Notes under the pieces: generated by a model
The model's input: only the letters and a program-made list of their open reading frames with translations
The model's database searches: none
What the model was told of the DNA's origin: nothing
Made by a program: the position numbers and the translations under genes
NCBI GenBank assembly: GCA_964640175.1
Contig: CAZXFW010000002.1
Coordinates: forward strand, 198,257-262,256
DNA: 64,000 bases
Source: an uncultured Polyangiales bacterium
Lineage (GTDB): Bacteria; Myxococcota_A; Polyangia; Polyangiales; GCA-016699535
Reading direction: 5' to 3'
In this document: piece after piece, positions 2,890-52,088 of the stretch
Layout: the number at the start of each line of letters is the position of its first letter
How positions within the stretch are numbered: the stretch's first letter is position 1

Positions 2890-4310
2890 TGTCACTAAGC
2901 CATCGAGAACCGGGAGATGGCTTTCACGATGAGTGCGGCGTGTTTGGCATCTACAGTGCCTCTGAGGCCAGCAAGTTAGCATGCCTGGGATTACATGCGT
3001 TGCAACACCGTGGCCAAGAAAGCGCTGGCATCGCTAGCACCGATGGCGAGCAGCTTTACATCCATCGGGCCCTTGGGCTGGTCAATGATGTTTTTACAGG
3101 AGACACGCTTTCCCATCTTCCAGGGAATTGCGCCATCGGCCATGTACGCTACTCCACCGCAGGTGGAAGTCATGTCAAAAACGCTCAACCGGTAGCGGTT
3201 GATTATGCCCATGGATCGATTGCCCTGGCACACAATGGCAATCTTACCAATGCTGAAGCACTGCGTTCAGAGTTGGAACATGCGGGATCAATCTTTCGCT
3301 CAACAGGAGATACCGAAGTCGTCGTGCATTTGATTGCTCGTTCGCGGGGACAAACCAACGTGGATCGCATTGCCGATGCGTTGCAGCAAATACAAGGCGC
3401 TTATTCCATGGTGATCCTCACACCTACGGAACTTGTGGCGGTGCGAGACCCGCATGGATTTCGGCCTCTTTGCTTAGGTAAACTCAATGGAGCGTACGTC
3501 TTTGCTTCAGAGCCGCCAGCGTTTGAGTTGATTGCTGCAGAGTATTTGCGTGATGTCGAGCCTGGCGAAATGATCGTCATTAACAAGCAAGGCATGCAAA
3601 GCCTGCGCCCTTTCCCCAAAGCCAGTGAACACATGTGTATCTTCGAATATGTGTACTTTGCCAGGCCCGACTCTGCTCTGGAGGGAATCAGTGTCTATCA
3701 AGCACGAAAGCGCCTCGGTCAAGCATTGGCACACGAATGCCCCGCGGATGCCGATGTCGTGATTCCTGTCCCAGACAGCGGACTGCCTGCTGCACTGGGC
3801 TACGCCGAAGCAGCGCAGTTGCCTTTCGAGCTTGGGCTGATTCGCAGTCACTACGTTGGACGCACCTTCATCGAACCGCAGCAATCGATTCGCCTTTTTG
3901 GAGTGCGTCTCAAGCTCAGCCCGATGCGTTCGGTCCTCAATAAAAAACGTGTTGTCGTCGTGGATGATTCGATCGTACGGGGCACGACGAGTCGAAAAAT
4001 CGTGCGAATGATCCGGGAGGCAGGAGCGCGAGAGGTTCACCTTCGGATCAGCTCACCACCGACACGCTGGCCTTGTTACTATGGGATTGATACCCCTCGG
4101 CAAGATGAGCTGATTGCCGCGCAACATAGTTCGGAAGAAGTGGCAAAGTACATTACTGCAGACTCCCTCGGCTATCTCAGCATCGCAGGATTGCATAGCG
4201 CTGTAGGCAACCGAGGATTTTGTGACGCGTGCTTTACCGGGGAGTACCCAGTGCCCCTACAGCACCCTAACCCCACACATAAGCGCCAGCTTAAACTCGT
4301 GGGTGTATAG
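2889..4310 (+). CDS. purF: amidophosphoribosyltransferase
   Basis: N-terminal nucleophile context ECGVFGIY, PRTase motif [14 protein letters not shown]-terminal Fe-S cysteines ([16 protein letters not shown]). Confidence 0.95.
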
Positions 4311-5104: not shown

Positions 5105-6826
5105 TCAGATCTCCGGCCGGTCGGAATGGGTACCAAACACCTCTCGCAACACGTCGCAAAGCTCTTGTTCCGTGCAATAGGCCTTGGCCGCCTCGATCAT
5201 GACAGGCATCAGATTTGTGCCATTAAGAGCAGCTTGACGCACCGCGTCAATCGCCCGTTGGACGGCTGCTTGGTCCCGCGTGCGTTTGAGCTCCGTCAAT
5301 GAGCGTACCTGAGCTTGTTGAGCTTCTTCATCAATCTTGAGAGTGGGAATTTTGTCTTTGTGACCGTGCCGATATTTATTAACGCCGACGCTAATTTTTT
5401 CGTTAGCCTCCACTTGGCGTTGCCGGCGATAGGCACTGGCCGCGATCTCTCGCTGAGGGTATCCACGTTCAACGGCTTCTAACATGCCGCCCATGGCATC
5501 GATCTTTTGAATATACTCAGTCGCCTGTGCTTCAAGCTGATCGGTAAGCCACTCGATGTAATAGCTGCCGCCCAACGGATCGATCGTTTGTGCCACGCCT
5601 GTCTCATACGCAATCAGTTGTTGTGTTCTCAATGCCAGTGTCACAGACTCTTGGGTAGGCAGGGCATAGGTTTCATCGTATGCGTTCGTGTGCAGTGACT
5701 GTACACCTCCCATGACCGCAGCAAGTGCCTGCATGGCCACACGCGCTATGTTGTTGAAAGGCTGTTGCGCAGTTAACGAGACACCTGCTGTTTGAGCATG
5801 GGTACGCTGCCGTAGCGATCGCGGATCAGTGGCCCCGAACCGATGCTTCATGATTTTAGCCCACATACGCCGTGCAGCGCGAAACTTGGCAATCTCCTCA
5901 AGGAAATCACTGTGCACATCAAAGAAAAAACTTAAACGCGGCGCGAAACTATCCACGGCCAGCCCGCGTTCCACACAGGCATCGACGTACGCGATTCCAT
6001 CTGCCAATGTAAAGCCAAGCTCCTGAACCGCTGTCGCACCCGCTTCGCGAATGTGGTAGCCGCTAATACTTACTGGATGCCACCGAGGCAATTCTTCGGC
6101 GGAAAATTCGATCATGTCAGTGACAATGCGCATGGCAGGCCGCGGCGGTACCACCCAGGCATGTTGTGCAATGAATTCCTTTAAACAATCGTTTTGAATC
6201 GTGCCGCCAAGCGCTGTTCGGGGAATTCCACGCTGGTCCGCAAGTGCAACGTAAAAAGCCAAAAGTACAATGGCAGGGCCATTGATGGTCATCGACGTCG
6301 TAACCTGATCCAAAGGAATGCCATCGAACAGCACTTCCATGTCTTTGAGGGTGTCTATGGCTACACCACACATTCCCACTTCGCCAAGTGCCCGTGACGA
6401 GTCGCTGTCGTAACCCATCAGCGTAGGGAAATCGAACGCCGTGCTTAATCCTGTTTGTCCATGCTCGAGTAAGTAACGAAAGCGTGCGTTGGTTTGCTCA
6501 GCCGTACCAAACCCTGCAAACATGCGCATGGTCCATAAACGCCCCCGATGCATGGTGGGGTAGACGCCTCGCGTGAACGGATACTGCCCAGGAAAGCCAA
6601 GCGATGAGAGATAATCGCTTGACACATCCAACGGGGTTGCAAGATCAGGCACGGGGATCCCACTCATGGTGGTTGGAATCGGAGCCTCGGCCGATGCTGT
6701 GCCAGAAACATCGTGGTGAAAGGTTCTACGCCAGGCATCCCGCTCTTTGCGGAGCTGAGCAAGTGTCGCTACATCCAACCCGTGCTCTTGCCCTTCTGCG
6801 GTAAACCGTTCTTTCGTCAAAACCAC
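5105..6826 (-). CDS. methylmalonyl-CoA mutase family protein, catalytic (TIM-barrel) subunit only
   Basis: 573 aa with typical mutase blocks ([32 protein letters not shown]). The protein ends before any B12-binding DxHxxG domain. Confidence 0.9.
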
Positions 6827-6827
6827 C

Positions 6828-7352
6828 TCAGTTCAGAGAATGAATATCCGAATGTAGCGGTACGACATTACCACCTAACACTTGCAAGATGCCTTCTACT
6901 TCCATGGATACTTCAAGCTCGGGACGTGTGTTGAGAAATCGCTGCAGGTAATCACGGGCCTCTGCTTGATCGCCTCGCGCAAAATGCACTAGGCCCAGCA
7001 AGTGTAATGCATCGGGATCTTCCAGCTCTTGACTGAGCACTTGCTTACCCACCCGGATGGCTTCTTCGTAACGCCCCAGCATACGCAATGTATGCCCAAG
7101 CCCGAGCATGGCACCTAGATAGCCAGGGGCAAGCTCGACGGCTTTAAGATAGGCTTTCATCGCTTGAACAAACTCACCCTGTTCGAAGTAAGCCACACCT
7201 AAATAATAATAGCCGTATTCATTCTCAGCGTCTTTTTCAAGCACACGCAAGAGCTCGGCCATCGCAGCATCGCGCTCGCCCTCGCGCAAAAGTTCCACAG
7301 CTTCTTGCACAGCGTCCCATCGAGCTTCAGGGGGTATATACGATTCAGCCAT
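6828..7352 (-). CDS. TPR-repeat protein
   Basis: Repeated 34-residue A/Y/G patterns ([35 protein letters not shown]). It sits 1 nt upstream of the mutase gene. Confidence 0.7.
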
Positions 7353-8521: not shown

Positions 8522-9664
8522 CTACTCACGCAACGCATGGCTGGCAATCACCACACGCATGATCTCACTGGTGCCTTCGTAAATCTCGGTGATGCGTGCA
8601 TCACGGTAATGGCGTTCCATGTCATAGTCTTTGGAATAGCCGTAGCCTCCGTGGATCTGCAAGGCTTTATGACATACACGGTTGGCCATTTCGGAAGCAA
8701 AAAGTTTTGCAACCGCGGACTCTGAGGTATGGCGCTTTCCTTGATCTTCAAGCCAGGCCGCACGGTGAACAAGAAGCCTTGCTGCATCAATTTCCACCGC
8801 CATGTCGGCCAACATGAACTGTATCGCTTGCTTCTGAGCGATGGGCTCCCCAAACGCGTTACGTTCTTTGGCATAATCTCGCGCTTTTTCAAAAGCGGCC
8901 CGCGCGATACCCACCGCTTGAGCTGCAATGCCAATACGCCCGGCATCCAACGTGGCCATCGCAATTTTGAATCCCTCCCCCTCTTTTCCCAGCTGGCACG
9001 CTTTGGGAATGCGGCAGTTATCGAAAAACACGGTACACGAATGCGCCGCATGAATACCAAGCTTGGCATCGGGCGCGTGGCGGCTAAAACCCGGAGTGTC
9101 TTTGGGAACTATAAACGCAGTGACGCCGCGTGCGCCAAGCTGACGATCGGTCGCCGCAAACATGACCATCACATCTGCATGAGGCCCATTGGTGATCCAA
9201 TTCTTGGATCCATTGATTCTCCAAGCATCGCCTTCTTGTTCCGCAACGGTTTCCATGTGGCTCGCATCCGAACCACTGGCAGGCTCCGTAAGCCCAAAAC
9301 ACCCGAGCAACACCCCTGCCGCCATCGGACGAAGGTACTGCTGCTTCTGATCCTCAGTGCCATAATGCAACAAAGGCGCACATGCCAACGAGTTATTAAC
9401 GGACATGATAACCCCCAGCGAAGCGCACGCAGCACTGATCTCTTCGATGGCCAACGCATAACTGACGTAGTCTGCGCCTACCCCTCCGTAAGCTTCCGGA
9501 ATGGCCACTCCCATCATCCCAAGCTCCCCAAGTCGCGTAACCAACGCGTGAGGCCAACGTGATTCAGCATCCAATGCACGTGCCACCGGGCTAACTTCAC
9601 GCTCTGCAAACTCGCGTGCAGTGTGTTGAATAAGCCGTTGCTCTTCACTCAAAGACATGTCCAT
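8522..9664 (-). CDS. acyl-CoA dehydrogenase (short/branched-chain-like)
   Basis: LTEPASGSD, NWITNG, QIHGGYGYSKDYDMERHYRDARITEIYEGTSEI. Paralogue of the adjacent gene. Confidence 0.9.
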   Translation of the reverse strand: MDMSLSEEQRLIQHTAREFAEREVSPVARALDAESRWPHALVTRLGELGMMGVAIPEAYGGVGADYVSYALAIEEISAACASLGVIMSVNNSLACAPLLHYGTEDQKQQYLRPMAAGVLLGCFGLTEPASGSDASHMETVAEQEGDAWRINGSKNWITNGPHADVMVMFAATDRQLGARGVTAFIVPKDTPGFSRHAPDAKLGIHAAHSCTVFFDNCRIPKACQLGKEGEGFKIAMATLDAGRIGIAAQAVGIARAAFEKARDYAKERNAFGEPIAQKQAIQFMLADMAVEIDAARLLVHRAAWLEDQGKRHTSESAVAKLFASEMANRVCHKALQIHGGYGYSKDYDMERHYRDARITEIYEGTSEIMRVVIASHALRE

Positions 9665-9718
9665 AAGCGTCAGTTACTCCTTAGCGTGATGCATAGTAAG
9701 CGTTGCATGTTCCACGCG

Positions 9719-12700
9719 TCATGGTGCATTGCCAAGTGCAGCAGTCGCACGCTCTGCATAACTTCCCTTGGGATCAAGCTCTAAGTAACGACGATAGGCC
9801 ACCCCAGCATCGGCCACAGATTGCGCTGACAATGCCTCACCCAACCAAAAATATCCCTCTGGCACCGCGTCAGACATGTCAGTGGCTTTGCGAAATGCTG
9901 AAATGGCATCATCGCGTTTTGGTGGCACTTGCATGAGATAGGCACGCCCCTTGAGCAACCAAAGCTTGGCAACCATGGCTGCTGGTCGTAACTGCACCTG
10001 CAATGCCGTCTGCGCTTGCTCCAATAATCCCAGCGCAATGCTGGCACGACTGGCACGCAGCTCAACTTCGGCCTGACCAAGCAATGCCTCTGGTAAATCG
10101 GCTTGCTTCCCCAATGCACCGCGATACGCTGCCGAAGCCCGCCCCATCCAACCCGATGCGAGCAATAAGTCTCCATAGGTTGCTAAAAGAGGAGCGCTCG
10201 CTTCGGGTTGCTCGGCCAATCCACTAATAGCCTCTAATCCTTCGGGAAGTTTCCCTTGCGCCAGTGCGATGTGTGCCACAAGCAACCGTGCACGCCCTGT
10301 ATTCCTCTCTTCAGGGGTGAGTGCATCCAGCAATTGATCCGCTTCTTTGAACTTCTTCAAACCGGCCGCAATGCGGACTCGCGTAAGTGTATCGTCTAAG
10401 TTTGCCTCAGACGTTGTGCCCTTGGGCAATTCATTAAGCCAGCTTTCTGCTTCAGCCCATCGGCCACTTTCCATGAGCAATTCGATCAGCTCTTTGCGTG
10501 CAGGATGGTATCCGGGCAAAAGTTTAAGTGCATCGCGTAAGGCTTGCTCGGCATCCCGAGACTGCCCACTTGCCTGTAGCACGCGAGCCTTCAAAAAATA
10601 GGTTTGTGCATTGTCAGGAGCAACTTTTTTTAGTATAATTTCGCCTCTTTTAGCCGCTTCCATATCCCGCAAGGCTAATCCAGTCTCTATTAAACTCACC
10701 GCCACTTCTCTGCTATTGGAGGATTGCCCCTCCAAGCGTTTGGCTTCCTCAAGCAGTGGCTCAGCAGGCTGGTTGAGCGCAAGCGCAACGCGAATCTTTA
10801 ATGCGTTGATCTCGATGCGTGCCATGGCCTCAGAAGTGACATAACTCTCGAGCACGTTATGCGCCCTTTCAAGCTCTTCAGGAGCGCCTGAAAGCAGCGC
10901 CGCATGCACACGTAAGCGCACGCCTTCGAGATCATCAAGCGACACACCAGAAGCAGCTATCAGCCCCTCAATGGGTTTACCTTGCTGTACCCGAAGCTCG
11001 ACTAACATTCGCTTGAGCGTAGGATTGCCAGGCGTTACGACCAATGCTTGGGTAATCGTCCGTTCTGCTTCCGTCAAAGCTCCGAGCCGCTGTGCCCACT
11101 TCGCCAATAGCCCCGATAACACTGGATCATGCAATACGATATCCGAAGCGCGGTTCATGGCATCCAATGCCCCCGACCGGTCATCCAGTAAGGCATGCAT
11201 GCGGAGTTGAATGAGTTCTGTCAGGAACCGATCGGTAGGCGCAAACGCGCTCTTATTCCTTTGTTGATCTTCCAGATCTTTTAACATCTCTCTGGGCTTA
11301 ACGTTGTTCACGCGAATAAGCATCGACCAAAGCAGAGCGCGAAGATGCCCAGGATAGGCTTGAAGCACTCGAGCGGGTATTTGCTCTGCAATGCTTATGG
11401 CTCCCCGATCCAAAAACAACGGCACAAACGCAAGCTCTGCTGCGGAAAAACTTGGTGCGCCCTCTGCAGCCTGTCGAAGAAATTGTTCGGCATCGGATTC
11501 GCCGAACCGTTGTTTCAACCTTCCCACGACATACGCCAATGCAGGATCCGTTTTTGTAAAGCCAAGTATCTTGTGGAGGTATTGGGTGGCATCTGTCTGA
11601 TCGGAAGCAAGCGCATGAAGTACGGCAAACGATGCATCGCGGTAGGATGTATTGGCAGTCCGACGACTGAGTGTTTGCACACTCAATCTCAAGGCATTGG
11701 TGTCATAAAATCCTTCTTCTAAAGCCCGTTGCATTTGCACGAACAAGAGCAAGTTGCCACTGGAAGCCCTATCAGGCGAAAGTGCCAATGCCTTATGTAG
11801 CTCGTCTTCGGCATGACGAAGCGAGACCGCATCGCCTCGAAGCGCAAGAACTCGCACACGAGCAACAATCAAATCAGCCTGTTGCTGCTTTTGGCGTTGC
11901 CAATAGGACCACCCTACATATCCTCCAAACCCGATCGCAATGAGCGCAAAAAAGCCAAGCCACCACCCCAACGTGCTCTTCGTACCCTGTCGCTTGTTCG
12001 ACGTACGCCGGCGCTTCTGCATGGAACGCTTGGCCTGGCTTCGCTTTTCGGAATCCGCCAAAGACGCATGCAAAGAACGTCGCGCTGTCTCTACTTGAGA
12101 GGCCACAAATGGCAAGGCATTGCTCTGCATTGAACCAGGATCCGGCCATGCCGCCAAATGCTGCGCATGGTCCTTGGCTGCAGGGGGCGGTTCGTTTTCA
12201 CGCAGAGTGCGCACACCATCCCCTAGCGTGCGCGAACGCAACGCCTCAGTGGTTTCCTTATCCAGCATGGCCGTGGACTCAAAGGTGTCCACCTCGGCCG
12301 GCGTTAACTCAAACTGAGAAGACGGTGGATGCAATTCCAAGGGACCACTGACACTTTGTTCAAAAAGCCCTGTCTGAGCGTGAGAGAGCTGCTCTTCGGA
12401 TGACACAGGCTCTGACGGTGATGCGTGCTCCTTAAGCGATATGTTCGGACGTGTACTAGGACGCTTGTGCAGTGGTTCAGGCCGTTGGCTATCCAACACC
12501 TCTCGCACCAATTGTCCCAAAAGAGATCCGGTGTCTGTAGCGTCTCGTGGGGGGGCTTCCCGTGAGGAAGCAAGAGGAGGCGCCGCTTCAGGAGAAACGT
12601 TGGAGTCCGTGATCGCGATAGGCCGACCGGACTCGCTGACTCCTGGCATCCCACGGATCGTCCCAGTGCCCACTGGCCGAAAGGCTTGAGGTGCACGTTT

Positions 12701-44117: not shown

Positions 44118-45083
44118 ATGGCCACTTCATCTGCCCGCCGCACGCTTATCGCATGCACTGATCTGTCGCGTAACTCGCTGCCAGCCCTTAAACAGGCTGC
44201 TTGGCTCGCTGCCACCCTGGACTATGCCGTCCAGCTTGTCTTTGTGGTGGATCCATTGTCCGTGTTGGACAAAGGAAAGCGCACTACCAATCAAGGAGAA
44301 CAACTTCGCGAGTGGGCAAACACCCAGCTGAAATTATTGCAGGAAAAGATTTTTACAGGCATAACAGCAGAAGCTTCCCTCATCGAACTGAATGAACAAG
44401 CGTGGTGGAGCGAGCTGACCAAGCCTTTCGACAACCATGCAATCGCCCAAGCCATTTGTGAAAAGGCGAAGCACTCTCAAGCCGATGTCGTGGTACTAGG
44501 AACCCATGGTCATGCAGGACTGAGTGAGTTGGTACTCGGCACCGTCGCCACACGCGTCATGAAACTCGCCCACTGTGACGTACTGACTGTCAGGCCCACT
44601 GAATCGGAGCAAAGTGACGCGCCTCTTGACCTCGAACACTTACCCACATCTCCAGCGCCTAAAAAACTGCAACACATTTTGTGTCCAATAGACTTTTCGG
44701 AATGCTCACGGCTTGCGTTAGGCCGAGCCGTACACCTTGCCCAAGCCTCTAATGCCACTGTCCACATTATGCACAGTTATCGGGTGCCTTTTTGGATGGG
44801 TCCGGGCTCCAATGACATGGCACACCAACTTTCAGATCAAGTTAAACAGTCCATGGAAGAAGCGGCACAACATTACGCCAACAGTGGCATTTTGTTTCAA
44901 TGCCATGTGGCGCTAGGCCGCCCACCCATGGCGATTCGAACACTTGCCCAAGAACTCAACATCGACGCCATTGTCATGGGGACGTTAGGACAAACGGCCC
45001 TCAACGAATTGCTTATCGGCAGTGTGACCGAACGCGCCGTACGGATGGCACCGTGCCCTGTCTTGGCGGTTCGCAATCGATGA
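44118..45083 (+). CDS. universal stress protein, tandem Usp domains
   Basis: Two Usp modules, each ending in the ATP-binding pattern (VVLGTHGHAGLSELVLGTVA; VMGTLGQTALNELLIGSVTE). Confidence 0.85.
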   Translation: MATSSARRTLIACTDLSRNSLPALKQAAWLAATLDYAVQLVFVVDPLSVLDKGKRTTNQGEQLREWANTQLKLLQEKIFTGITAEASLIELNEQAWWSELTKPFDNHAIAQAICEKAKHSQADVVVLGTHGHAGLSELVLGTVATRVMKLAHCDVLTVRPTESEQSDAPLDLEHLPTSPAPKKLQHILCPIDFSECSRLALGRAVHLAQASNATVHIMHSYRVPFWMGPGSNDMAHQLSDQVKQSMEEAAQHYANSGILFQCHVALGRPPMAIRTLAQELNIDAIVMGTLGQTALNELLIGSVTERAVRMAPCPVLAVRNR

Positions 45084-46387
45084 CCCGCTTGCACACCATC
45101 CTCGGAGTGCTGGGGCTACTCACGCTGCTCCATGGTGGCTGTAGCCGCAAACGTACACAAGACACAGTCGCCGAACCCGCACAGCCTGCTTCTGCCACGG
45201 CTCCTTTGAAAGCGAACGATCTCAAAAACGGCCTTCTCCTTAGCTATGCCCAATTCCGCATAGGCCCCAATGGCAACGTAACTTCGGAGCCAGGCCCTGC
45301 GCGCTTGGAGATTCTCCGAAAACAACAAGGCAAATGGCACGTGGACGTCATTGAAGATGCCGATAGCAATGTGTTTCACAAAGCCATGGTTTTCAGTTTA
45401 CCAGGGCAGAAACCGGGCATTTTAACACTGGGCGGCACCAAAGCCATCGTCAAGCTATGGCATCACCATCCAAACGGCTATCAAGCCAATATCCTGTGGC
45501 AAGCCCAATTCGGCGGCAAATTCGATCGGATGAGAGATGCTGAAATCGCAGATATCTATGGCACTTCCATTCCTGCAATCGTTGTAGGCACCCATGATCA
45601 AGGCGTCGTTGCTGTCTTACAGCCTTCCAAAACAGGTCAGATCGAAGTGCACACCATCGACAAAGAGGCCAACACCTTCATCCATGAAATCGAAGTCGGA
45701 GACTTAGACAACGATGGCACCTTGGAAATCTACGCCACGCCAAGTGAGCCCAACAAGCTAGGCGGCGGAAGCCAACAAGGCAGTGTGGTGCGCTACGTCC
45801 CCAAACAGAAACAAGGGCGTCAACTTGTCGCCAATTTGGGAAATCGACACGCGAAAGAAATCTATGTCGGCGACGTTGACGGAGACCACCGCGATGAACT
45901 GTACGTCGCCGTAGAAGCCCTCACGAAACAAACCGATCAAGGCGTAACCATCGTGGAACCTGTCGAAATCCGCCGCTTTGATTACGGCACAGCTCCCACC
46001 TCTGGCAAAATCGTAGCGACGATACCCGATCGGCTTTGCCGGTTTCTTACCGTGGGCGACATCGACGGCGACGGACAGCGTGAAATGGTAGCCGCAGCCT
46101 ACCGCAGTGGGTTATGGCTGCTACGGCCAAACAAGGATCCCAAGGCGCCCTGGAGCGTCGAAAATATCGAACACGAATCCTCTGGATTTGAACACGCTGC
46201 TATCTTTGCCGATCTCGATGAAAACGGCCGCTCTGAGCTCTACGTCGCGGCCGATGAACAAGGCGAGCTGCGTCAATATACATGGGAACATGGAAAGCGT
46301 CATCGCGAGACATTGCTTCGTCGGCCCAATCCCAAGGCACTGATCACCTGGAACATTGTTCCTTACCCTATCAGCCTCTTCGATTGA
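45080..46387 (+). CDS. FG-GAP/VCBS-repeat lipoprotein
   Basis: Start moved to ATG 45080 (ATGA overlap with usp). Lipobox LLHGGC. Repeated Ca-binding-like loops: GDLDNDGTLEIY, GDVDGDHRDELY, GDIDGDGQREMV, ADLDENGRSELY. Confidence 0.75.
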   Translation: MTRLHTILGVLGLLTLLHGGCSRKRTQDTVAEPAQPASATAPLKANDLKNGLLLSYAQFRIGPNGNVTSEPGPARLEILRKQQGKWHVDVIEDADSNVFHKAMVFSLPGQKPGILTLGGTKAIVKLWHHHPNGYQANILWQAQFGGKFDRMRDAEIADIYGTSIPAIVVGTHDQGVVAVLQPSKTGQIEVHTIDKEANTFIHEIEVGDLDNDGTLEIYATPSEPNKLGGGSQQGSVVRYVPKQKQGRQLVANLGNRHAKEIYVGDVDGDHRDELYVAVEALTKQTDQGVTIVEPVEIRRFDYGTAPTSGKIVATIPDRLCRFLTVGDIDGDGQREMVAAAYRSGLWLLRPNKDPKAPWSVENIEHESSGFEHAAIFADLDENGRSELYVAADEQGELRQYTWEHGKRHRETLLRRPNPKALITWNIVPYPISLFD

Positions 46388-46388
46388 T
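46353..46388 (+). repeat. direct repeat copy 1 (36 bp; encodes the last codons and stop of the FG-GAP gene)
   Basis: ACATTGTTCCTTACCCTATCAGCCTCTTCGATTGAT, versus copy 2 at 47714-47749 with 2 mismatches. Weaker similarity continues about 8 bp further. Confidence 0.9.
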
Positions 46389-46507
46389 GCTTGAGGATGA
46401 TGTTGGGCCTCGATAAAGGCAGATAAAGGTCGATCCCACTGATAGCGCGACTGCGGTCCTGGCATCGTTGGATCCCATGCCCGCGTCACGACTAAATTCA
46501 CACTAAT

Positions 46508-46562
46508 GTCAAAATTGACGTGACAAAATTGACATAGACGTCAATTTTGCTATATTAGCCAC
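46508..46562 (+). promoter_or_regulatory. sigma70-like promoter with three operator-like repeat copies; apparently leaderless
   Basis: TTGACA (46529-46534), 16-nt spacer, TATATT (46551-46556), and ATG only 6 nt later. The motif CAAAATTGAC occurs at 46510-46519 and 46524-46533, and inverted (GTCAATTTTG) at 46540-46549. Confidence 0.6.
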
Positions 46563-47699
46563 ATGCAATTTCGGCCCCGATATCTTGCATCACCTATCCA
46601 GAAAGACTTGGAAAATCAAAAGATGGTGTTTCTGGGGGGGCCGCGACAAGTCGGAAAAACAACGCTCGCATTAAGCCTACTTGGCCCCGATGCCACGGAG
46701 ACACATCCCGCCTATCTCAACTGGGATGCAATTTCCAACCGCAAGGCGATTCGCCAACAACATCTGCCGTCCCATCAGCCAACCGTCATCTACGATGAGA
46801 TTCATAAATATGCCCGTTGGAGAAACCTGATCAAAGGCCTTTATGACACGCATAAATCCAAAGTACGCATCATTGTCACCGGTTCGGCGCGCTTGGATTA
46901 CTACCGCAAGGGCGGCGATTCGCTACAGGGTCGCTATCACTATTTCCGACTCCATCCTCTTTCTATCGGCGAGGTGGGTGAAGGAGCCGTAGATAAGCTC
47001 ATGCAACTCGGCGGTTTTCCAGAGCCATTCTTTTCAGGCAGTGAGCGTACGCTACGCAGATGGCAAAACGCCCGCATTGAGCGCGTTGTGTACGAAGACT
47101 TGCGTGATCTGGAAAAAGTACGTGAGCTTAGCCTCTTGGAGCATTTGGTTGATGCACTACCGAGCCGCGTCGGTTCGCCACTTTCGATACAGAGCTTGGC
47201 AGAAGACCTTTCGGTGGCGTTTCGTACAATTGATCGCTGGATTGAGATGCTTGAACGCTTGTACGTCTGTTTCCGTATCTCACCTTATGGTGCACCGAAA
47301 ATACGCGCTGTTAAGAAAGAACGTAAGCTATACTTTTGGGATTGGTCCATGGTGCCTGACATGGGCGCTCGTTTTGAGAACATGATTGCCTCACATTTGC
47401 TGAAGTATTGCCATTTTATCGAAGACACCGAAGGTTATCGCATGGATTTGCGCTTCATTCGGGATCGGGACGGCCGCGAAGTCGATTTTGTCGTACTCAA
47501 AGAGGGAAAGCCTTTGTTTGCCGTGGAATGTAAATCAGGCGAGCGCTGCATCAGCTCGCATACCCGCTATTTTCGAGAACGAACATCGATACCCCAGTTT
47601 TTCCAAGTGCACCGCGCAACCCAGGACTTCGGCAATCAAGACACGGACACGCGCGTGTTGCCCATCGCAACTTTCTCAAGAGAATTGGGGCTGCCGTAA
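46563..47699 (+). CDS. AAA+ ATPase with C-terminal DUF4143 / PD-(D/E)xK-like domain (COG1373 type)
   Basis: Walker A GGPRQVGKTT, Walker B VIYDEIH. C-terminal GREVDFVVLKEGKPLFAVECKSG fits a D...ExK nuclease-fold motif. Confidence 0.85.
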   Translation: MQFRPRYLASPIQKDLENQKMVFLGGPRQVGKTTLALSLLGPDATETHPAYLNWDAISNRKAIRQQHLPSHQPTVIYDEIHKYARWRNLIKGLYDTHKSKVRIIVTGSARLDYYRKGGDSLQGRYHYFRLHPLSIGEVGEGAVDKLMQLGGFPEPFFSGSERTLRRWQNARIERVVYEDLRDLEKVRELSLLEHLVDALPSRVGSPLSIQSLAEDLSVAFRTIDRWIEMLERLYVCFRISPYGAPKIRAVKKERKLYFWDWSMVPDMGARFENMIASHLLKYCHFIEDTEGYRMDLRFIRDRDGREVDFVVLKEGKPLFAVECKSGERCISSHTRYFRERTSIPQFFQVHRATQDFGNQDTDTRVLPIATFSRELGLP

Positions 47700-47713
47700 A
47701 TGGTGGTCGTCCC

Positions 47714-47749
47714 ACATTGTTCCTTTCCCTATCAGCCTCTTGGATTGAT
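47714..47749 (+). repeat. direct repeat copy 2
   Basis: ACATTGTTCCTTTCCCTATCAGCCTCTTGGATTGAT. 34 of 36 positions are identical to 46353-46388. Confidence 0.9.
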
Positions 47750-47760
47750 TCTTTCGGTAA

Positions 47761-50700
47761 TTGTACTTTAGGTTAAAGAGGATGACTCTGGATCCTCTCG
47801 ATTATTTAGAAAAGCGCCATGAAGACGAAGAGGCTACCGACGCCTCCTCAAGCCTGTTGGACCACCCTCGAATTGGAAAGGTCCAGACTCCTACGCATGG
47901 GCTTTCGGAATCCGAAGCGTGGCTTGAGCGATTGTATGCCTCTGAGCGCATGCCTCGCGACAAAAAGCCGTTTGTGCTGGACCCTTTGCGTTCTTACGGC
48001 GCATGGATGGCCTCCATCGACCAGCCGCCACTTTGTCTGCTCGATGGGATGAGCCAAACCGCCACCCTTCCCTTTGGGTTTGGCGATACCCGCTTGCTCC
48101 AAGCCTATCTCGATGGTGTGTTTGGCGATACGATTCTTAGTGCCGAGGACATCAGCGTCATGCCTCATCCTGCTGCGCGTTCATTTGCATCCACGCTGCA
48201 GTCCTTGCTCCCTGGATTTCGCACCGTGTGCTTTGTCAACAGTGGCGCTGAAGCCAACGAAAAAGCGCTTGGCCTATGCTGGGCACACCGCACACACCCT
48301 ACGCAACGACGAGTACTTGCCTTTGAAGGTGCCTTTCACGGCCGGACGCTACTTGCACTGCATGCCACCGCCAATCCAAGCAAACGAGGCCCCTATGAAC
48401 TGGCTGGATACGAAGCACAGTTTGCTCCCTTCCCTGTATGTAATCCACATCACGCATCGACGATTCGTGCATCAGCCTCGTGGCTGGCTGACCTTTATCA
48501 CCATGGCGTAGCGCACCTCGCTCACGCAGTGGATCGTAGTAAAGACACTCAGCTTGCCACTGATATAGATGCCCTGCAAACACTCGAAACACTCCTTAAA
48601 GCTGGCGAATGCTTTGCATGCATCCTTGAACCCATGCAAAGCGAGGGCGGAGACCGCTATGCCAGCACGCGCTTCTTTCAAGCAGTGCGCGTGCTCACCC
48701 GAAAGTACCACGTGCCGCTTATCATGGACGAAGTTCAAACCGGGTTTGGCCTCGGCGGAAGCTTCTGTTGGCATCAACAGTTCACCTTCATGCAATACGA
48801 TGGGACGCCGGATTTGCCCGACTGCGTCACCTTTGCCAAGCGTGCCCAAGTCGGCGTGGTCTTAGCCCATGTTGAAGATTCGGAACCCAGCACAAGCCAT
48901 GGAGCCTCGTTGGTCCGCGGTCGTCTGCATGCCGAACTCCTGGCCAAAGACACCTATGTAAAACCACTTCAAGCACACGTAAGTGCACGCCTTGAGACTT
49001 TGCACACTCAATTCCCCTCGCTCATGCTCCATCCGCGAGTCACAGGCTATGCCCTTGCGTTTGATTTGCCCACACCGAAACACCTGGAGCAATACCTCGC
49101 ACAACGCATGTCCCATGGCGTTATGGTATTTGGTGCGGGCGACCGCACTGTCCGCTATCGCTTATCCACTGCCTTCGCGGATACGGAACTCAACACCCTG
49201 TTTAATGCCATCGAAGCCAGCTTACGTTTGCTGGACCACTCTTCTGGCAACCCCGCCGCTCTTGCCACACATCTGAAACACCACTCGCTTCGCACTCACA
49301 CGCCAAGCGCTCAGCCGGTGACTATACGTCTTGCAGAATCTACCGAAGCCGACACGCTGCTTGATGCGATCATGAATCTTGAAGCGCGTATGTACGAACC
49401 TGCACGACGTGATTCTCGCGCGATGCTCGCGCACGCGTTTGAACACCCCGACGGCGTTGTCGTCGTGGCAGAACAACACGCCCCATCAGGACGTACTCTC
49501 GTGGGGGTGTGTCTTGGTGTGCCTCTCGAAGTGGTAGCTCATATCGACGGGCCCAACCACGACCCGATGCTGGGCCAACACAACACGCTGTACATACAGA
49601 CGCTAGCAGTCGATCCCCGTTACCATGGCCGTGGTCTTGGTCGTGAATTGAAGTTATGCATTTTACACCAAAGCAAAGCCCTTGTCACTGCGGCAGGCGT
49701 CCCGCGCTATTTGTTTCAAACGGGACGAAACCGTATTGGGCACACCCAAGCCGTCTCTCAGTTGAACCAAAGCCTTGGAGCGTATGAAGTTCAGCGATTC
49801 CAGGGTCAATATGGCGATCCGGATGCGCAAGCCTCCTACTACCGCATTCATCTTCGGGGGTTTGGACTATCCCCCTCCAGCTCCCCGACTTCAGACCAAG
49901 CGCGTGATCTGTGTAGCGGAATTTCACGACCCTTGCTCACACCACCCGCCACACTCTCTCAGGCGTTGCGCAACGGAAGTCTTTGTCATCCCGCCCTTAA
50001 CAAACTCACGCTCAGTAACTACGTCACTCCTGCCGTGATTCGTGCAGTGGAATGGGTAAGCGCGTTATGCCCTGAACTGCCTCATCTATTCTTAACCTCA
50101 TCACGCGATGAATGCGTTGATAAAACCTTGCGATGCATGCGTTTTCACCGACCCAAAGCACACATCGCATTAGGATTGCAAGGAGGGTATGTGGGGCATA
50201 CCACCGCAGCAGCCCGCTCGTTAAGCGATGCTGCCGTGCATCGCGGCGGCCCCGCATATTTTGAGGCATGGCCCCTGCTTCCTCATCCACAAACCTCCGG
50301 CATTGAACACACCTTGGCGCATCTCGAAGCCTGCGTCGCACATGCAGGCGGCGGCCAGCATGTCTTTGGTCTTTTTCTTGAAGCTGTTCAAGAACGTACG
50401 GGCCGAGTGATGGATGATTCCACCTGGCAAGCGCTCCATCAGCACTGCCAACGTCTGAATGTGCCCCTGGTGCTTGTCGAAACGGCATCTTCTCTTTACC
50501 GTTCAGGGCGTGGACCCTTTTACAGCAGCACATGGTCGCTGAAACCGGATGCCATGCTATGGTGGGCCGGAGGCCAACTTGGGTTTATCCATCTGGCTCC
50601 CCGCTACCGTATTTCAACACCTCTGACCATGATATCCACCTGGGATGGCGATGAACTGAGTCTCATTCGCGTGCATCATCAGTTACGCACTTTACGTCAC

Positions 50701-50970
50701 ATGGATACAACAACCCGCATCGCAACAATGGACGAACTACTCAAAAACACGCTATCATCACCTTTTAAACTCCGAGGCACTGGCATGTATCGCATGATCG
50801 AAGCCACCAATGAAGCCAACGCGTTGTGTGAGTACTTACAGGCCCAAGGCTGGCAAGCACGATGCTTTGCCAACCAATACGTTCCCGTTGCTCCCTCGAT
50901 GGATATTTCCGAAGCCACCCTTTTGGCTTTGGAAAAAACTCTGAGTCACTATTCACCATGCGAGTCTTAG
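47761..50970 (+). CDS. three-domain fusion: class-III (lysine-6-aminotransferase-like) aminotransferase + GNAT acetyltransferase + degenerate class-III aminotransferase-like domain
   Basis: N-domain: SGAEANEKAL, GAFHGRT, EPMQSEGGDRY, DEVQTGFGLGG, TFAKRAQVG. Middle: GNAT motif A, LAVDPRYHGRGLGREL. C-domain: TSSRDECVDK, GGYVGHT, LEAVQERTG, LVLVETASS, WWAGGQLG. The true start may be ATG 47782 (AAGAGG upstream). Confidence 0.8.
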   Translation: MYFRLKRMTLDPLDYLEKRHEDEEATDASSSLLDHPRIGKVQTPTHGLSESEAWLERLYASERMPRDKKPFVLDPLRSYGAWMASIDQPPLCLLDGMSQTATLPFGFGDTRLLQAYLDGVFGDTILSAEDISVMPHPAARSFASTLQSLLPGFRTVCFVNSGAEANEKALGLCWAHRTHPTQRRVLAFEGAFHGRTLLALHATANPSKRGPYELAGYEAQFAPFPVCNPHHASTIRASASWLADLYHHGVAHLAHAVDRSKDTQLATDIDALQTLETLLKAGECFACILEPMQSEGGDRYASTRFFQAVRVLTRKYHVPLIMDEVQTGFGLGGSFCWHQQFTFMQYDGTPDLPDCVTFAKRAQVGVVLAHVEDSEPSTSHGASLVRGRLHAELLAKDTYVKPLQAHVSARLETLHTQFPSLMLHPRVTGYALAFDLPTPKHLEQYLAQRMSHGVMVFGAGDRTVRYRLSTAFADTELNTLFNAIEASLRLLDHSSGNPAALATHLKHHSLRTHTPSAQPVTIRLAESTEADTLLDAIMNLEARMYEPARRDSRAMLAHAFEHPDGVVVVAEQHAPSGRTLVGVCLGVPLEVVAHIDGPNHDPMLGQHNTLYIQTLAVDPRYHGRGLGRELKLCILHQSKALVTAAGVPRYLFQTGRNRIGHTQAVSQLNQSLGAYEVQRFQGQYGDPDAQASYYRIHLRGFGLSPSSSPTSDQARDLCSGISRPLLTPPATLSQALRNGSLCHPALNKLTLSNYVTPAVIRAVEWVSALCPELPHLFLTSSRDECVDKTLRCMRFHRPKAHIALGLQGGYVGHTTAAARSLSDAAVHRGGPAYFEAWPLLPHPQTSGIEHTLAHLEACVAHAGGGQHVFGLFLEAVQERTGRVMDDSTWQALHQHCQRLNVPLVLVETASSLYRSGRGPFYSSTWSLKPDAMLWWAGGQLGFIHLAPRYRISTPLTMISTWDGDELSLIRVHHQLRTLRHMDTTTRIATMDELLKNTLSSPFKLRGTGMYRMIEATNEANALCEYLQAQGWQARCFANQYVPVAPSMDISEATLLALEKTLSHYSPCES

Positions 50971-52088
50971 AACTTCCCGTTAACGCTTCTCCCCGACAAA
51001 GGGGACAGATCCACGGCGAAACGTTTCGTCCGCTCATCCGCGAAATTGCTGACATTCGCACTGAACTGGCTTTAACACTGGGTCGCTTTGAGACTCCCGA
51101 CGGGCTCGACCTTGTGGCCGCACGGCACATACCTCTCATGCAAACCTTGCTGCCCGAGCTTCTCGATGAAATGACAGGCATCGCTGAAGGCTCCGGACTT
51201 TCCATCGAACAGGTCATTGTCTTGAATCACTACACAGACCTTCGCGATTTGGATCCTCAGCAACTTGATGCACACCTAAGTTCCGAATCGTTGCCTCCCG
51301 AACACACCCATAAAATCAATTTCTCCGCTATTCCTACCGAAGAGGATTGCACCGCCCTGTATGCACAATCCAATGAAGGCGTGTTTCTTGGACAAACGTG
51401 GGACATGCATGGCTCTGCAGCGCCTTATGTCTTGATGCTACATATCCCCGCACACGACGAAGCTCCAGAAGCATGGTGCTTATCAATCACAGGGTGCCTG
51501 GGCCTTGCTGGCATGAATGCCAAGGGCATCGGCATTACCATCAACAATCTACGTAGTACGGATGCACGTATTGGCCTGATATGGCCCGCACTGGTGCGCG
51601 CCGTTCTTGAAAAGCCTTCGGTCATCGAAGCGCGCGATGTGATTTTAGATAACCCTGTAGGTTCGGGGCATCATTATTTAATAGCTTCCGAGCAGTTTTG
51701 TTACGCGATTGAAACCTCTGGCACACTCAAACGCATTGTGTTCAGCGGAGAAGCAGAACATTACGTGCACACCAACCATTGCCTGGATGCCGAAGTGGCC
51801 CAACACACCACTCAAGCCTTTGAAAGCACTTCTCACGAGCGTTACGATTTATTGGTTCGACACCTCATGCACGCTCCCATCCGCAATTTCAAAGACATGT
51901 GGGCGCATCTTGGTTCACACAGCAGCTACCCTCGCAGCATTTGTAGCCATCTCGCTTCCGTCGACCGCCCTCATGCCTCCCGAACCTGCGGCGGCATCGC
52001 TATGGACTTAAGCGCCAAGTACATCCACGCAGCAAGTGGATGCATTCACCGTGCCTGGCCCCATTCATTTGAATTCATTGCGGAATAA
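50958..52088 (+). CDS. C45-family Ntn acyltransferase/hydrolase (acyl-CoA:6-aminopenicillanic-acid acyltransferase-like)
   Basis: Start moved to ATG 50958 (13-nt overlap with the upstream gene). Internal nucleophile context EEDCTALYA followed by GQTWDMHG, then NNL/HTNH blocks as in IAT-like proteins. Confidence 0.7.
   Translation: MRVLELPVNASPRQRGQIHGETFRPLIREIADIRTELALTLGRFETPDGLDLVAARHIPLMQTLLPELLDEMTGIAEGSGLSIEQVIVLNHYTDLRDLDPQQLDAHLSSESLPPEHTHKINFSAIPTEEDCTALYAQSNEGVFLGQTWDMHGSAAPYVLMLHIPAHDEAPEAWCLSITGCLGLAGMNAKGIGITINNLRSTDARIGLIWPALVRAVLEKPSVIEARDVILDNPVGSGHHYLIASEQFCYAIETSGTLKRIVFSGEAEHYVHTNHCLDAEVAQHTTQAFESTSHERYDLLVRHLMHAPIRNFKDMWAHLGSHSSYPRSICSHLASVDRPHASRTCGGIAMDLSAKYIHAASGCIHRAWPHSFEFIAE

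Follow-up and report, generated by a model that had tools for sequence, protein, structure and literature searches.

Which process places a foreign gene between two copies of the last codons of its upstream neighbour? This question is raised by a locus in a 64-kb stretch of DNA (64,000 nucleotides, hereafter the window) from an uncultured Polyangiales bacterium. In this locus, the 3' end of a gene coding for an FG-GAP lipoprotein recurs behind the next gene, which codes for an AAA+ protein that matches the candidate defence family PDC-S01. A first-pass annotation, made from the sequence alone, had regarded the arrangement as the footprint of an insertion into the end of the FG-GAP gene. The comparison with related genomes demonstrates the de novo insertion of a recombinase-free fragment, accompanied by a target duplication of at least 40 bp. 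With respect to the route, we consider it rather likely that a foreign PDC-S01 fragment of 1321 bp was inserted with a long target duplication by means of offset breaks and end-joining.

Insertion of a single-gene fragment behind the FG-GAP gene

The 36-mer ACATTGTTCCTTACCCTATCAGCCTCTTCGATTGAT (46353-46388) recurs with two mismatches at 47714-47749, as had been noticed in the first-pass annotation. At up to three mismatches these two are the only matches in the window, where 0.00 are expected according to 100 shuffles. Extended without gaps, the repeat comprises 40 nt with 37 identical positions (46353-46392 versus 47714-47753; spacing 1361). A weaker similarity had been proposed to continue for about 8 bases beyond the 36-mer. 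The first four of these bases belong to the 40-nt repeat, whereas the following four add little (5/8 identical over the eight bases). Copy 1 closes the open reading frame (ORF) of the FG-GAP protein (...ITWNIVPYPISLFD; protein ...NIVPYPISLFD; stop codon 46385-46387). Copy 2 ends an orphan frame (...HIVPFPISLLD, followed by a stop codon), which begins 14 nt past the stop codon of the AAA+ gene. The reading frames thus agree with the proposal that copy 1 encodes the true C-terminus of the lipoprotein and copy 2 an orphan. The repeated segment encodes the conserved C-terminus of the product of a single-copy gene; a dispersed repetitive extragenic palindromic (REP) element, which according to the first-pass annotation would have refuted its reading, was rejected for the window. 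Neither a second copy or paralogue of the cassette nor a further 40-mer was found within the window.

Relatives of the host contain the corresponding empty site. The FG-GAP protein has an exact match in other assemblies and orthologues of 58-75% identity across Polyangia and Myxococcota; the closest lineages by this measure are represented by the loci L005 (75%) and L009 (70%). The window is colinear with both from 37.1 to 55.2 kb (about 18 kb), and the sole gap is located at 46388-47916. In L005 and L009, the FG-GAP gene is directly followed by an aminotransferase gene, and the repeated segment occurs once per locus. The stop codon of the FG-GAP gene overlaps the start codon of the aminotransferase gene in L005 (ATGA), and a 33-nt spacer separates the two genes in L009, which is laid out as the spacer between copy 2 and the aminotransferase gene of the window. 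When aligned with the relatives, copy 1 runs to the left into the FG-GAP gene, and copy 2 runs to the right into the spacer and the start of the aminotransferase gene, as in L009. Colinear relatives with one copy of the segment and no insert therefore identify the event as an insertion with target duplication, which parted the FG-GAP gene from the downstream aminotransferase operon. This is the empty site that the first-pass annotation had predicted for an alignment with related genomes. The features of the locus are the following:

45080-46387, plus strand: intact gene of the FG-GAP/VCBS lipoprotein (Pfam FG-GAP_3, FG-GAP), the target of the insertion; start assigned by the lipobox MTRLHTILGVLGLLTLLHGGC, last 35 nt including the stop codon within copy 1
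46353-46392, plus strand: copy 1 of the direct repeat, the left target duplication, 37/40 to copy 2
46393-46413, plus strand: probable further stretch of the duplicated target, now decayed; it resembles the ribosome-binding site and initial codons of the aminotransferase gene as a pseudo-copy from which the 24-nt spacer is gone (alignment with L002, see below)
46414-46509, plus strand: non-conserved, fast-evolving leader with no match in other family loci
46510-46549, plus strand: operator-like repeats, CAAAATTGAC at 46510-46519 and 46524-46533, reverse complement GTCAATTTTG at 46540-46549
46529-46556, plus strand: cassette promoter consisting of TTGACA, 16 nt, and TG-extended TATATT; 11/12 consensus positions
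46563-47699, plus strand: intact AAA_14 ATPase/DUF4143 gene, 378 aa (Pfam; PADLOC PDC-S01, COG1373)
47700-47713, plus strand: 3' tail of the insert, ATGGTGGTCGTCCC, 14 nt, no terminator
47714-47753, plus strand: copy 2 of the direct repeat, which is the original 3' end of the FG-GAP gene, now displaced and orphaned, with the ancestral F and L codons kept
47754-50970, plus strand: 29-nt remainder of the ancestral spacer (47754-47782), then the gene of an Aminotran_3 plus GNAT fusion (Pfam), first gene of the downstream operon; ATG at 47783, set by alignment with L005 (MRRDPLDVLE) and L009 (MSQDTLDVLE)

The insert (46393-47713, 1321 bp) consists of a promoter, an operator-like inverted repeat and one gene, which confirms that a promoter of its own and a single gene lie between the copies. 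The first 115 bp or so contain no recognisable feature. An inverted repeat with perfectly matching 10-bp arms, 6 bp apart (46524-46549), overlaps both the -35 hexamer and the spacer of the promoter. Only 6 nt separate the end of the -10 hexamer from the ATG, and the mRNA of the cassette is probably leaderless. Because the promoter is strong and no terminator follows the AAA_14-DUF4143 gene, transcription probably reads through into the aminotransferase operon. Inverted repeats were not found at the ends of the insert, and Pfam revealed neither an integrase nor a transposase in it, as stated in the first-pass annotation; a methyltransferase is likewise missing from the insert.

The encoded protein matches the models of the PDC-S01/COG1373/AAA_14 plus DUF4143 family over both domains. 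The Pfam matches to AAA_14 (7e-25) and DUF4143 (1e-27) are above the gathering cut-offs, and the PADLOC matches to PDC-S01 amount to 1.4e-52 and 1.8e-45. The Walker A motif GxxxxGKT, the Walker B motif DE, and the residues D308, E322 and K324 (D308...E322-x-K324) are invariant in 36 homologues. The AlphaFold model of the 378-aa protein has a pLDDT (predicted local distance difference test) value of 86.9 and retrieves generic AAA+ relatives alone among solved structures (RuvB, RFC, ORC, TnsC, MuB, STAND). By sequence, no relative of solved structure was detectable, and no NCBIfam model matched the protein. The PD-(D/E)xK families include DUF4143 (PMC3424549). PDC-S01 has been described as a very common family consisting of an ATPase fused to a PD-(D/E)xK domain, which was repeatedly transferred across domains and is a candidate defence family whose validation is pending (PMC12988326). 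PDC-S01 is moreover reported to be the fourth most common (candidate) defence gene in prokaryotes.

The PDC-S01 gene as a mobile promoter/operator and ORF unit

The insert was compared with loci of its family from many phyla; in about 150 of these, the conserved unit comprises no more than promoter/operator and ORF. Homologues that are 60-65% identical occur in Latescibacterota, Spirochaetota, Planctomycetota, Lentisphaerota, Elusimicrobiota, Acidobacteriota, Gamma- and Alphaproteobacteria, Bdellovibrionota, and Myxococcota. Among 160 loci, many pairs are 82-95% identical in their DNA solely from 40-130 bp before the start codon to 0-36 bp past the stop codon, and their flanks are unrelated. 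The gene family behaves as a mobile unit of promoter/operator and ORF. The only conserved non-coding element is the palindrome TACTCATGAGTA, which is centred about 39 nt before the start codon and was found in 114 of 153 family loci versus 1 of 312 background pieces. A fuller form, (CTACTT)TACTCATGAGTA(AAAT), is located upstream of the gene (-100 to -1) across phyla, for example in L091, L072, L040, and L081. In the window, the inverted repeat of CAAAATTGAC replaces TACTCATGAGTA at the same place relative to the -35 hexamer. The palindrome is presumably an autoregulatory operator, the specificity of which would have changed in the window copy. Among about 150 loci, no 8-mers common beyond chance were found downstream of the gene or at -300 to -100; a conserved attC, att arm or terminal repeat is therefore excluded. 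Relatives of the cassette gene were not found in IMG/VR, and PLSDB and INPHARED contain only relatives of at most 41% identity, i.e. no plasmid or phage vehicle for the subfamily.

A separate observation concerns the downstream border of the gene. In three loci from Latescibacterota and Pseudomonadales with a common upstream context (L014, 1846-4042; L033, 5142-9109; L049, 5109-5438), the synteny is lost no more than a few bases from the AAA_14-DUF4143 stop codon. At this edge, L014 has 2.2 kb of extra DNA that encodes an AAA_21/AAA_15 ATPase, and L033 has 4 kb in which two large ORFs (627 and 645 aa) are located. Insertions seem to recur at the 3' edge of the gene.

Flanking repeats are not confined to the window. 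For each gene, the 450 bp upstream were aligned with the 300 bp downstream, and a score of at least 18 was used as threshold. Controls were 158 neighbouring genes of 250-600 aa, mostly core genes. Repeats above the threshold flank 6 of 68 genome loci versus 1 of 158 control genes (Fisher p = 0.003) and 6-7 of 67 metagenome loci, which corresponds to about 9% of the family loci overall. In the course of curation, one case of a dispersed 18-mer was removed, namely L059, whose 18-mer is present six times in the locus and was excluded as REP; one low-complexity case and one case with three copies were flagged. Including the window (W), eleven unique pairs resulted (W, L046, L060, L069, L079, L091, L136, L143, L151, L160, L172). 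Their lengths range from 25 to 131 bp, no two pairs have the same sequence, and the inserts between them measure 1321-1667 bp. As in the window, it is the upstream gene whose 3' end forms the left repeat in L060 (a subtilase) and L111 (MazF/PemK). In L111, three copies of the MazF/PemK 3' end (836-895, 2575-2701, 4181-4309) lie amid toxin-antitoxin pairs (RelBE-like, Phd/PIN, MazEF), and the AAA cassette sits between copies 2 and 3. Between the repeat and the conserved core, 0-300 bp of non-conserved DNA were found; the inserted fragments therefore have no fixed ends.

Extent of the duplication and route of insertion

The original length of the duplication can be estimated by means of a second strain, L002. 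Its contig starts and ends inside the repeat, where an assembler with k=31 breaks at an exact repeat of 36 nt. Both repeat copies of L002 contain the ancestral bases (F..L), and the repeat is exact over these 36 nt. The F and L codons of copy 2 in the window are those of the relatives (NIVAFPINALE, NIVPFPVAATH, and NIVSFPLSLLEP, each followed by a stop codon), and copy 1 of the window has two non-synonymous differences, F to Y and L to F. Since copy 1 of L002 is ancestral, these two changes postdate the insertion. Past copy 1, the L002 sequence GAGGATAACGCCGGATC--CTCGAT aligns with positions 47777-47801 of the window (GAGGATGACTCTGGATCCTCTCGAT), which comprise the ribosome-binding site and the beginning of the aminotransferase coding sequence (20/23 and a gap of 2 nt; shuffle p about 0.001). 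It is therefore probable that the duplication originally comprised about 93 bp (47714-47806) and that copy 1 lost 24 nt later. An extension by means of the window's own sequence, in which GAGGATGA follows both copies, is not significant (p = 0.24-0.34), and no similarity aligns beyond CTCGAT (past 46413). A duplication of about 93 bp would have spanned the junction of the two flanking genes, and for this reason both would have remained undamaged.

The route that we favour can be described as follows. A linear fragment of 1321 bp (46393-47713) would have arrived at the FG-GAP/aminotransferase junction of a Polyangia-type myxobacterium, where two offset single-strand breaks, tens of bases apart, would have opened the chromosome. 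Filling in of the overhangs would have duplicated the target over at least 40 bp, probably about 93 bp, and the fragment would have been captured between the filled ends by end-joining or illegitimate recombination. Paired offset nicks that are repaired by fill-in give such duplications. The flanking genes would have stayed whole in this process: copy 1 supplies the end of the FG-GAP gene, and the start of the aminotransferase gene still has copy 2 and the old spacer in front of it. Afterwards, the repeats of about 36-40 bp would permit RecA-type excision and re-integration between strains. Excision by recombination between the repeats is expected to leave the empty site ..CCTGGA-ACATTG..GATTGAT-TCTTTCGG.. 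and to release the circle ..GGTCGTCCC-ACATTG..GATTGAT-GCTTGAGG...

Insertion with long target duplication was reportedly described for restriction-modification (RM) genes by Nobusato et al. 2000 (Gene 259:99). The process was named by Kobayashi's group and had been observed initially for RM genes of Helicobacter pylori, later in many bacteria (PMC2853133). Furuta et al. 2010 (NAR 38:2428, PMC2853133) found unique target duplications of 46 bp to more than 400 bp around RM genes, for example a 46-bp repeat that overlaps 15 bp of the 3' end of HI0105, and tied such events to a property such as double-strand breakage. That study looked for direct repeats longer than 30 bp; the repeat of the window comprises 40 nt (37/40). 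It compared each insertion with a related genome that has a single copy of the repeat and no insert. This comparison is intraspecific in the paper and interspecific in the case of L005 and L009 (70-75% identity of FG-GAP). The inserts considered there are shorter than 20 kb and contain no mobility genes; here, the insert consists of 1321 bp and one gene. The repeat had to be unique in the genome, neither dispersed nor a tRNA; within the 64-kb window, the one described here is the sole pair, and it is the end of a single-copy gene. Finally, the cargo had to contain homologues of R and M genes, in place of which the window has one gene and no methyltransferase. The window resembles the RM insertions in its small, recombinase-free insert and in a repeat of more than 30 bp, unique within the window, that is single-copy in the relative and varies in length between cases. 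As in HI0105, the repeat overlaps the 3' end of the upstream gene, and the cargo is of a putatively DNA-cleaving defence type. Unlike the RM insertions, the cargo is a single ATPase-nuclease gene of a candidate defence family, the host is a myxobacterium, a promoter/operator is conserved in the cassette family, and many phyla display the footprint again. On the basis of this comparison, the locus can be regarded as a known class of event in which both the cargo family and the host group are new. Such a footprint is atypical of integrases and transposases.

Other routes have to be weighed against these data. The first-pass annotation had considered an att-like site whose recombinase acts in trans or has been lost. 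The 40-mer would then represent attL and attR, and the attP of a circular cassette would mimic the 3' end of the FG-GAP gene. Integrative elements often target the 3' ends of genes and restore them with element-borne sequence, 36-40 bp fall within the range of att lengths, and the three repeat copies in the toxin-antitoxin array of L111 are what tandem site-specific insertions would give. However, the insert contains no recombinase gene, nor do the 8 kb to its left and right, which are fully syntenic with the relatives. There is also no sign of an element-borne variant of the repeat site, since both copies of L002 have the ancestral bases of the host, and a duplication that probably extended over about 93 bp into the start of the next gene exceeds a core site. 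In the family, the cassettes have no common flanking core, the repeats (25-131 bp) all differ in sequence and length, and the conserved unit stops 0-36 bp past the stop codon. A fixed att core is therefore no property of the element; the att-like reading is not supported, and we consider site-specific integration unlikely. The window shares with integrase islands the direct repeats that bracket the insert, with a left copy that restores the target gene and an orphan copy on the right. It differs from them in the lack of an integrase and of a conserved att core in the sister cassettes, in a variable repeat that probably comprised about 93 bp, and in an insert of only 1.3 kb. Homologous integration of the Campbell type, in which a circle from a sibling strain (cassette plus one repeat) recombines with the resident 3' end of the FG-GAP gene, would yield exactly the structure of the window. 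The exact 36-nt repeat of L002 is long enough for RecA, and the identity of the gene (100%) versus that of the upstream 108 bp (74%) between window and L002 shows recent gene exchange between lineages. This process accounts, however, for the spread among close strains and not for the first insertion, as the circle must already hold host sequence; as an explanation of the locus it is very improbable. Finally, the structure might be a chimeric join in a metagenome-assembled genome (MAG). The source is probably a MAG, as judged from the source-named FG-GAP homologues, nearly all of which are labelled as such, and misjoins can be drawn to repeats. Yet the left junction is 100% identical in two further samples (L001 and L003), L002 as a third sample has the cassette with the repeat at both sides, and the copies of the window differ at three positions and hence are not collapsed. 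The probability of an artefact is consequently negligible.

Two further alternatives dispense with a pre-existing attachment site or circle. In the case of replication template switching, similar to fork stalling and template switching (FoSTeS) or microhomology-mediated break-induced replication (MMBIR), a stalled fork would copy the cassette from a different molecule, re-enter upstream of its point of exit, and copy 40-93 bp a second time. This would generate duplications of variable length without any element-encoded function, and hairpins or terminators in the repeats of L046, L143 and L172 are plausible stall sites. Neither window junction displays microhomology, however, and the capture of foreign DNA by this process is poorly documented in bacteria, which leaves it with a very low probability. 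It is also conceivable, albeit improbable, that the AAA+/PD-(D/E)xK protein, expressed from the incoming DNA, cuts the recipient chromosome and inserts its own gene. PDC-S01 genes would then be minimal self-inserting selfish elements lacking integrase, transposase and defined ends, composed of a promoter/operator and one ATPase-nuclease gene whose product introduces widely offset nicks; we judge this notion to be equally doubtful. It is in line with the long flanking repeats in about 9% of the family loci across phyla, the compact unit with its conserved promoter/operator, the invariant D/E/K nuclease motif, and the absence of a plasmid or phage vehicle for the subfamily in IMG/VR, PLSDB and INPHARED. 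The probable leaderless mRNA of the window could suit many hosts, and Furuta 2010 (PMC2853133) ties the same footprint to DNA-breaking genes. On the other hand, the nuclease activity is putative, the controls fail to separate the family from other accessory genes, with L036 (see below) hinting at a generic footprint, and the variable extra DNA between repeat and core leaves the ends undefined.

Insertion with long target duplication by offset breaks and end-joining thus remains the preferred explanation. A number of observations weigh against it. The joining step is inferred: nothing in the sequence displays offset nicks, and no microhomology was found at either junction of the window. Flanking repeats are missing from about 90% of the family loci, which may be old insertions whose repeats have decayed or may have arisen by another route. 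As the control genes are mostly core genes, the enrichment may hold for any recently inserted gene. The sole control match (L036, 344-1720, minus strand) has a repeat of 57/60 nt that reaches the edge of the search window and is thus at least 60 bp long. It flanks a gene coding for Schlafen/AlbA_2, HATPase_c_4 and a winged helix-turn-helix, a single-gene insert of a defence-associated type, which suggests that the long-repeat footprint is generic and not confined to one family. The three copies in L111 could stem from a series of insertions at a single hot spot and would also fit a site preferred for recombination. For L046 (Binatia), the closest relative without the cassette, L175 (89% identical, same neighbours), has no gene but a promoter/operator remnant. 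This solo remnant, AAACTCGTGAGTATTTTACGGTACACCCGAAAATACTCACG (6741-6782), is located between a permease and a hydrolase gene, and the site reads as a deletion scar, where the gene was lost and the operator left, and not as a naive empty site. In L173, a 96% identical relative of L046, the cassette and the left repeat are present and the right flank is rearranged. Moreover, the limits of homology at the edges of the ORF could result from allele replacement between resident cassettes instead of new insertions. Such a replacement would explain the 100% identity of gene and tail (1181 bp) next to 74% over the upstream 108 bp between window and L002. Finally, the gene differs little in composition from its flanks: its GC content is 0.509 versus 0.52-0.55 for the neighbours, and the GC content at third codon positions (0.541) is within their range. 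The comparison of composition that the first-pass annotation had recommended was thus carried out for gene and flanks and is uninformative.

Two established classes of mobile elements were rejected. An integron gene cassette is incompatible with the missing attC or other conserved or palindromic 3' element, a promoter of its own, housekeeping neighbours, and the lack of intI and attI. Integron cassettes and the family of the window are alike in being single-gene mobile units of about 1-1.5 kb from the same kinds of environmental phyla, and toxin-antitoxin genes are near some of the loci. In contrast to integron cassettes, the unit of the window has a near-consensus promoter of its own and a tail of only 14 nt, and homology in the family ends 0-36 bp past the stop codon. 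A transposon of the insertion sequence/DDE type was discarded, as no transposase domain and no inverted repeats at the ends exist, and the family repeats (25-131 bp) are not of a short, fixed length. IS1630 of Mycoplasma generates target duplications of 19-26 bp (cited in PMC2853133), which are likewise variable and longer than usual. Unlike IS1630, the cassette has neither a transposase nor terminal inverted repeats, and the family repeats are longer, with up to 131 bp.

In the available parts of the literature on DUF4143, COG1373 and PDC-S01, nothing was found on movement of the gene, on the promoter/operator module or on target duplications. The window locus represents a clean pair of filled and empty site, in which a PDC-S01 gene arrives as a bare promoter plus ORF, with a long target duplication as its trace. 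What Kobayashi's group had linked to RM genes is thereby extended to a non-RM nuclease family and to Myxococcota, and unique repeats of 25-130 bp around about 1.3-1.7 kb offer a signature to find and date such insertions. Locally, a translationally coupled gene pair was split, and a conserved aminotransferase/CoA-transferase operon came to lie behind a strong foreign promoter. The locus also raises the question whether DNA-breaking defence genes promote their own integration, and the interest in it would rise sharply if the encoded nuclease did so. If true, self-insertion would account for the long, variable target duplications and also for the way in which a candidate defence gene that is among the commonest has spread across phyla.

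Strain differences and neighbouring genes

The divergence between the window and L002 is uneven along the insert. Identity is complete (100%) over the gene and its 3' tail (1181 bp), amounts to 93.5% in the promoter/operator, and is only 74%, with a 10-bp indel, in the first 108 bp of the insert (46393-46500). The block of identity begins about 5 nt before the ATG (46393-46562 versus L002 31-196). This pattern suggests a recent exchange of the gene alone or an unusually fast change upstream of it. Contigs from two further samples end at or near the repeats: L004 at position 46387 of the window, i.e. at the stop codon of the FG-GAP gene, and L001 at 47709, 5 nt before copy 2. Since the two repeat copies of the window strain have no 31-mer in common, these breaks may reflect mixed filled, empty or variant alleles in the respective populations.

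The downstream neighbour annotated as an aminotransferase encodes about 1060 aa and is a fusion in which two Aminotran_3 matches are combined with a GNAT domain. In L005 and L009, it is followed by an AAT-family acyltransferase, a second aminotransferase, and a two-subunit CoA-transferase. On the level of DNA, colinearity of the window with these loci extends to about 55.1 kb, and the AAT gene (50862-52088) is the only downstream gene beyond the fusion gene that was annotated in the window itself. The order of the aminotransferase/CoA-transferase cluster is kept in L005, L009, and L012. In L012, a more remote relative (CP064980.1, Myxococcales; FG-GAP 59% identical), the FG-GAP/aminotransferase junction contains an HTH_3 gene of 283 aa (9325-10176), which has no flanking repeat (best match 9 nt). 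Either this junction was hit twice, or the HTH_3 gene is ancestral there.

A second neighbourhood of variable content is that of L046. At 5477-7349, a GmrSD_N (DUF262) gene and a second gene adjoin the AAA cassette, and both are absent from L173. The locus past the permease is a small variable defence islet.

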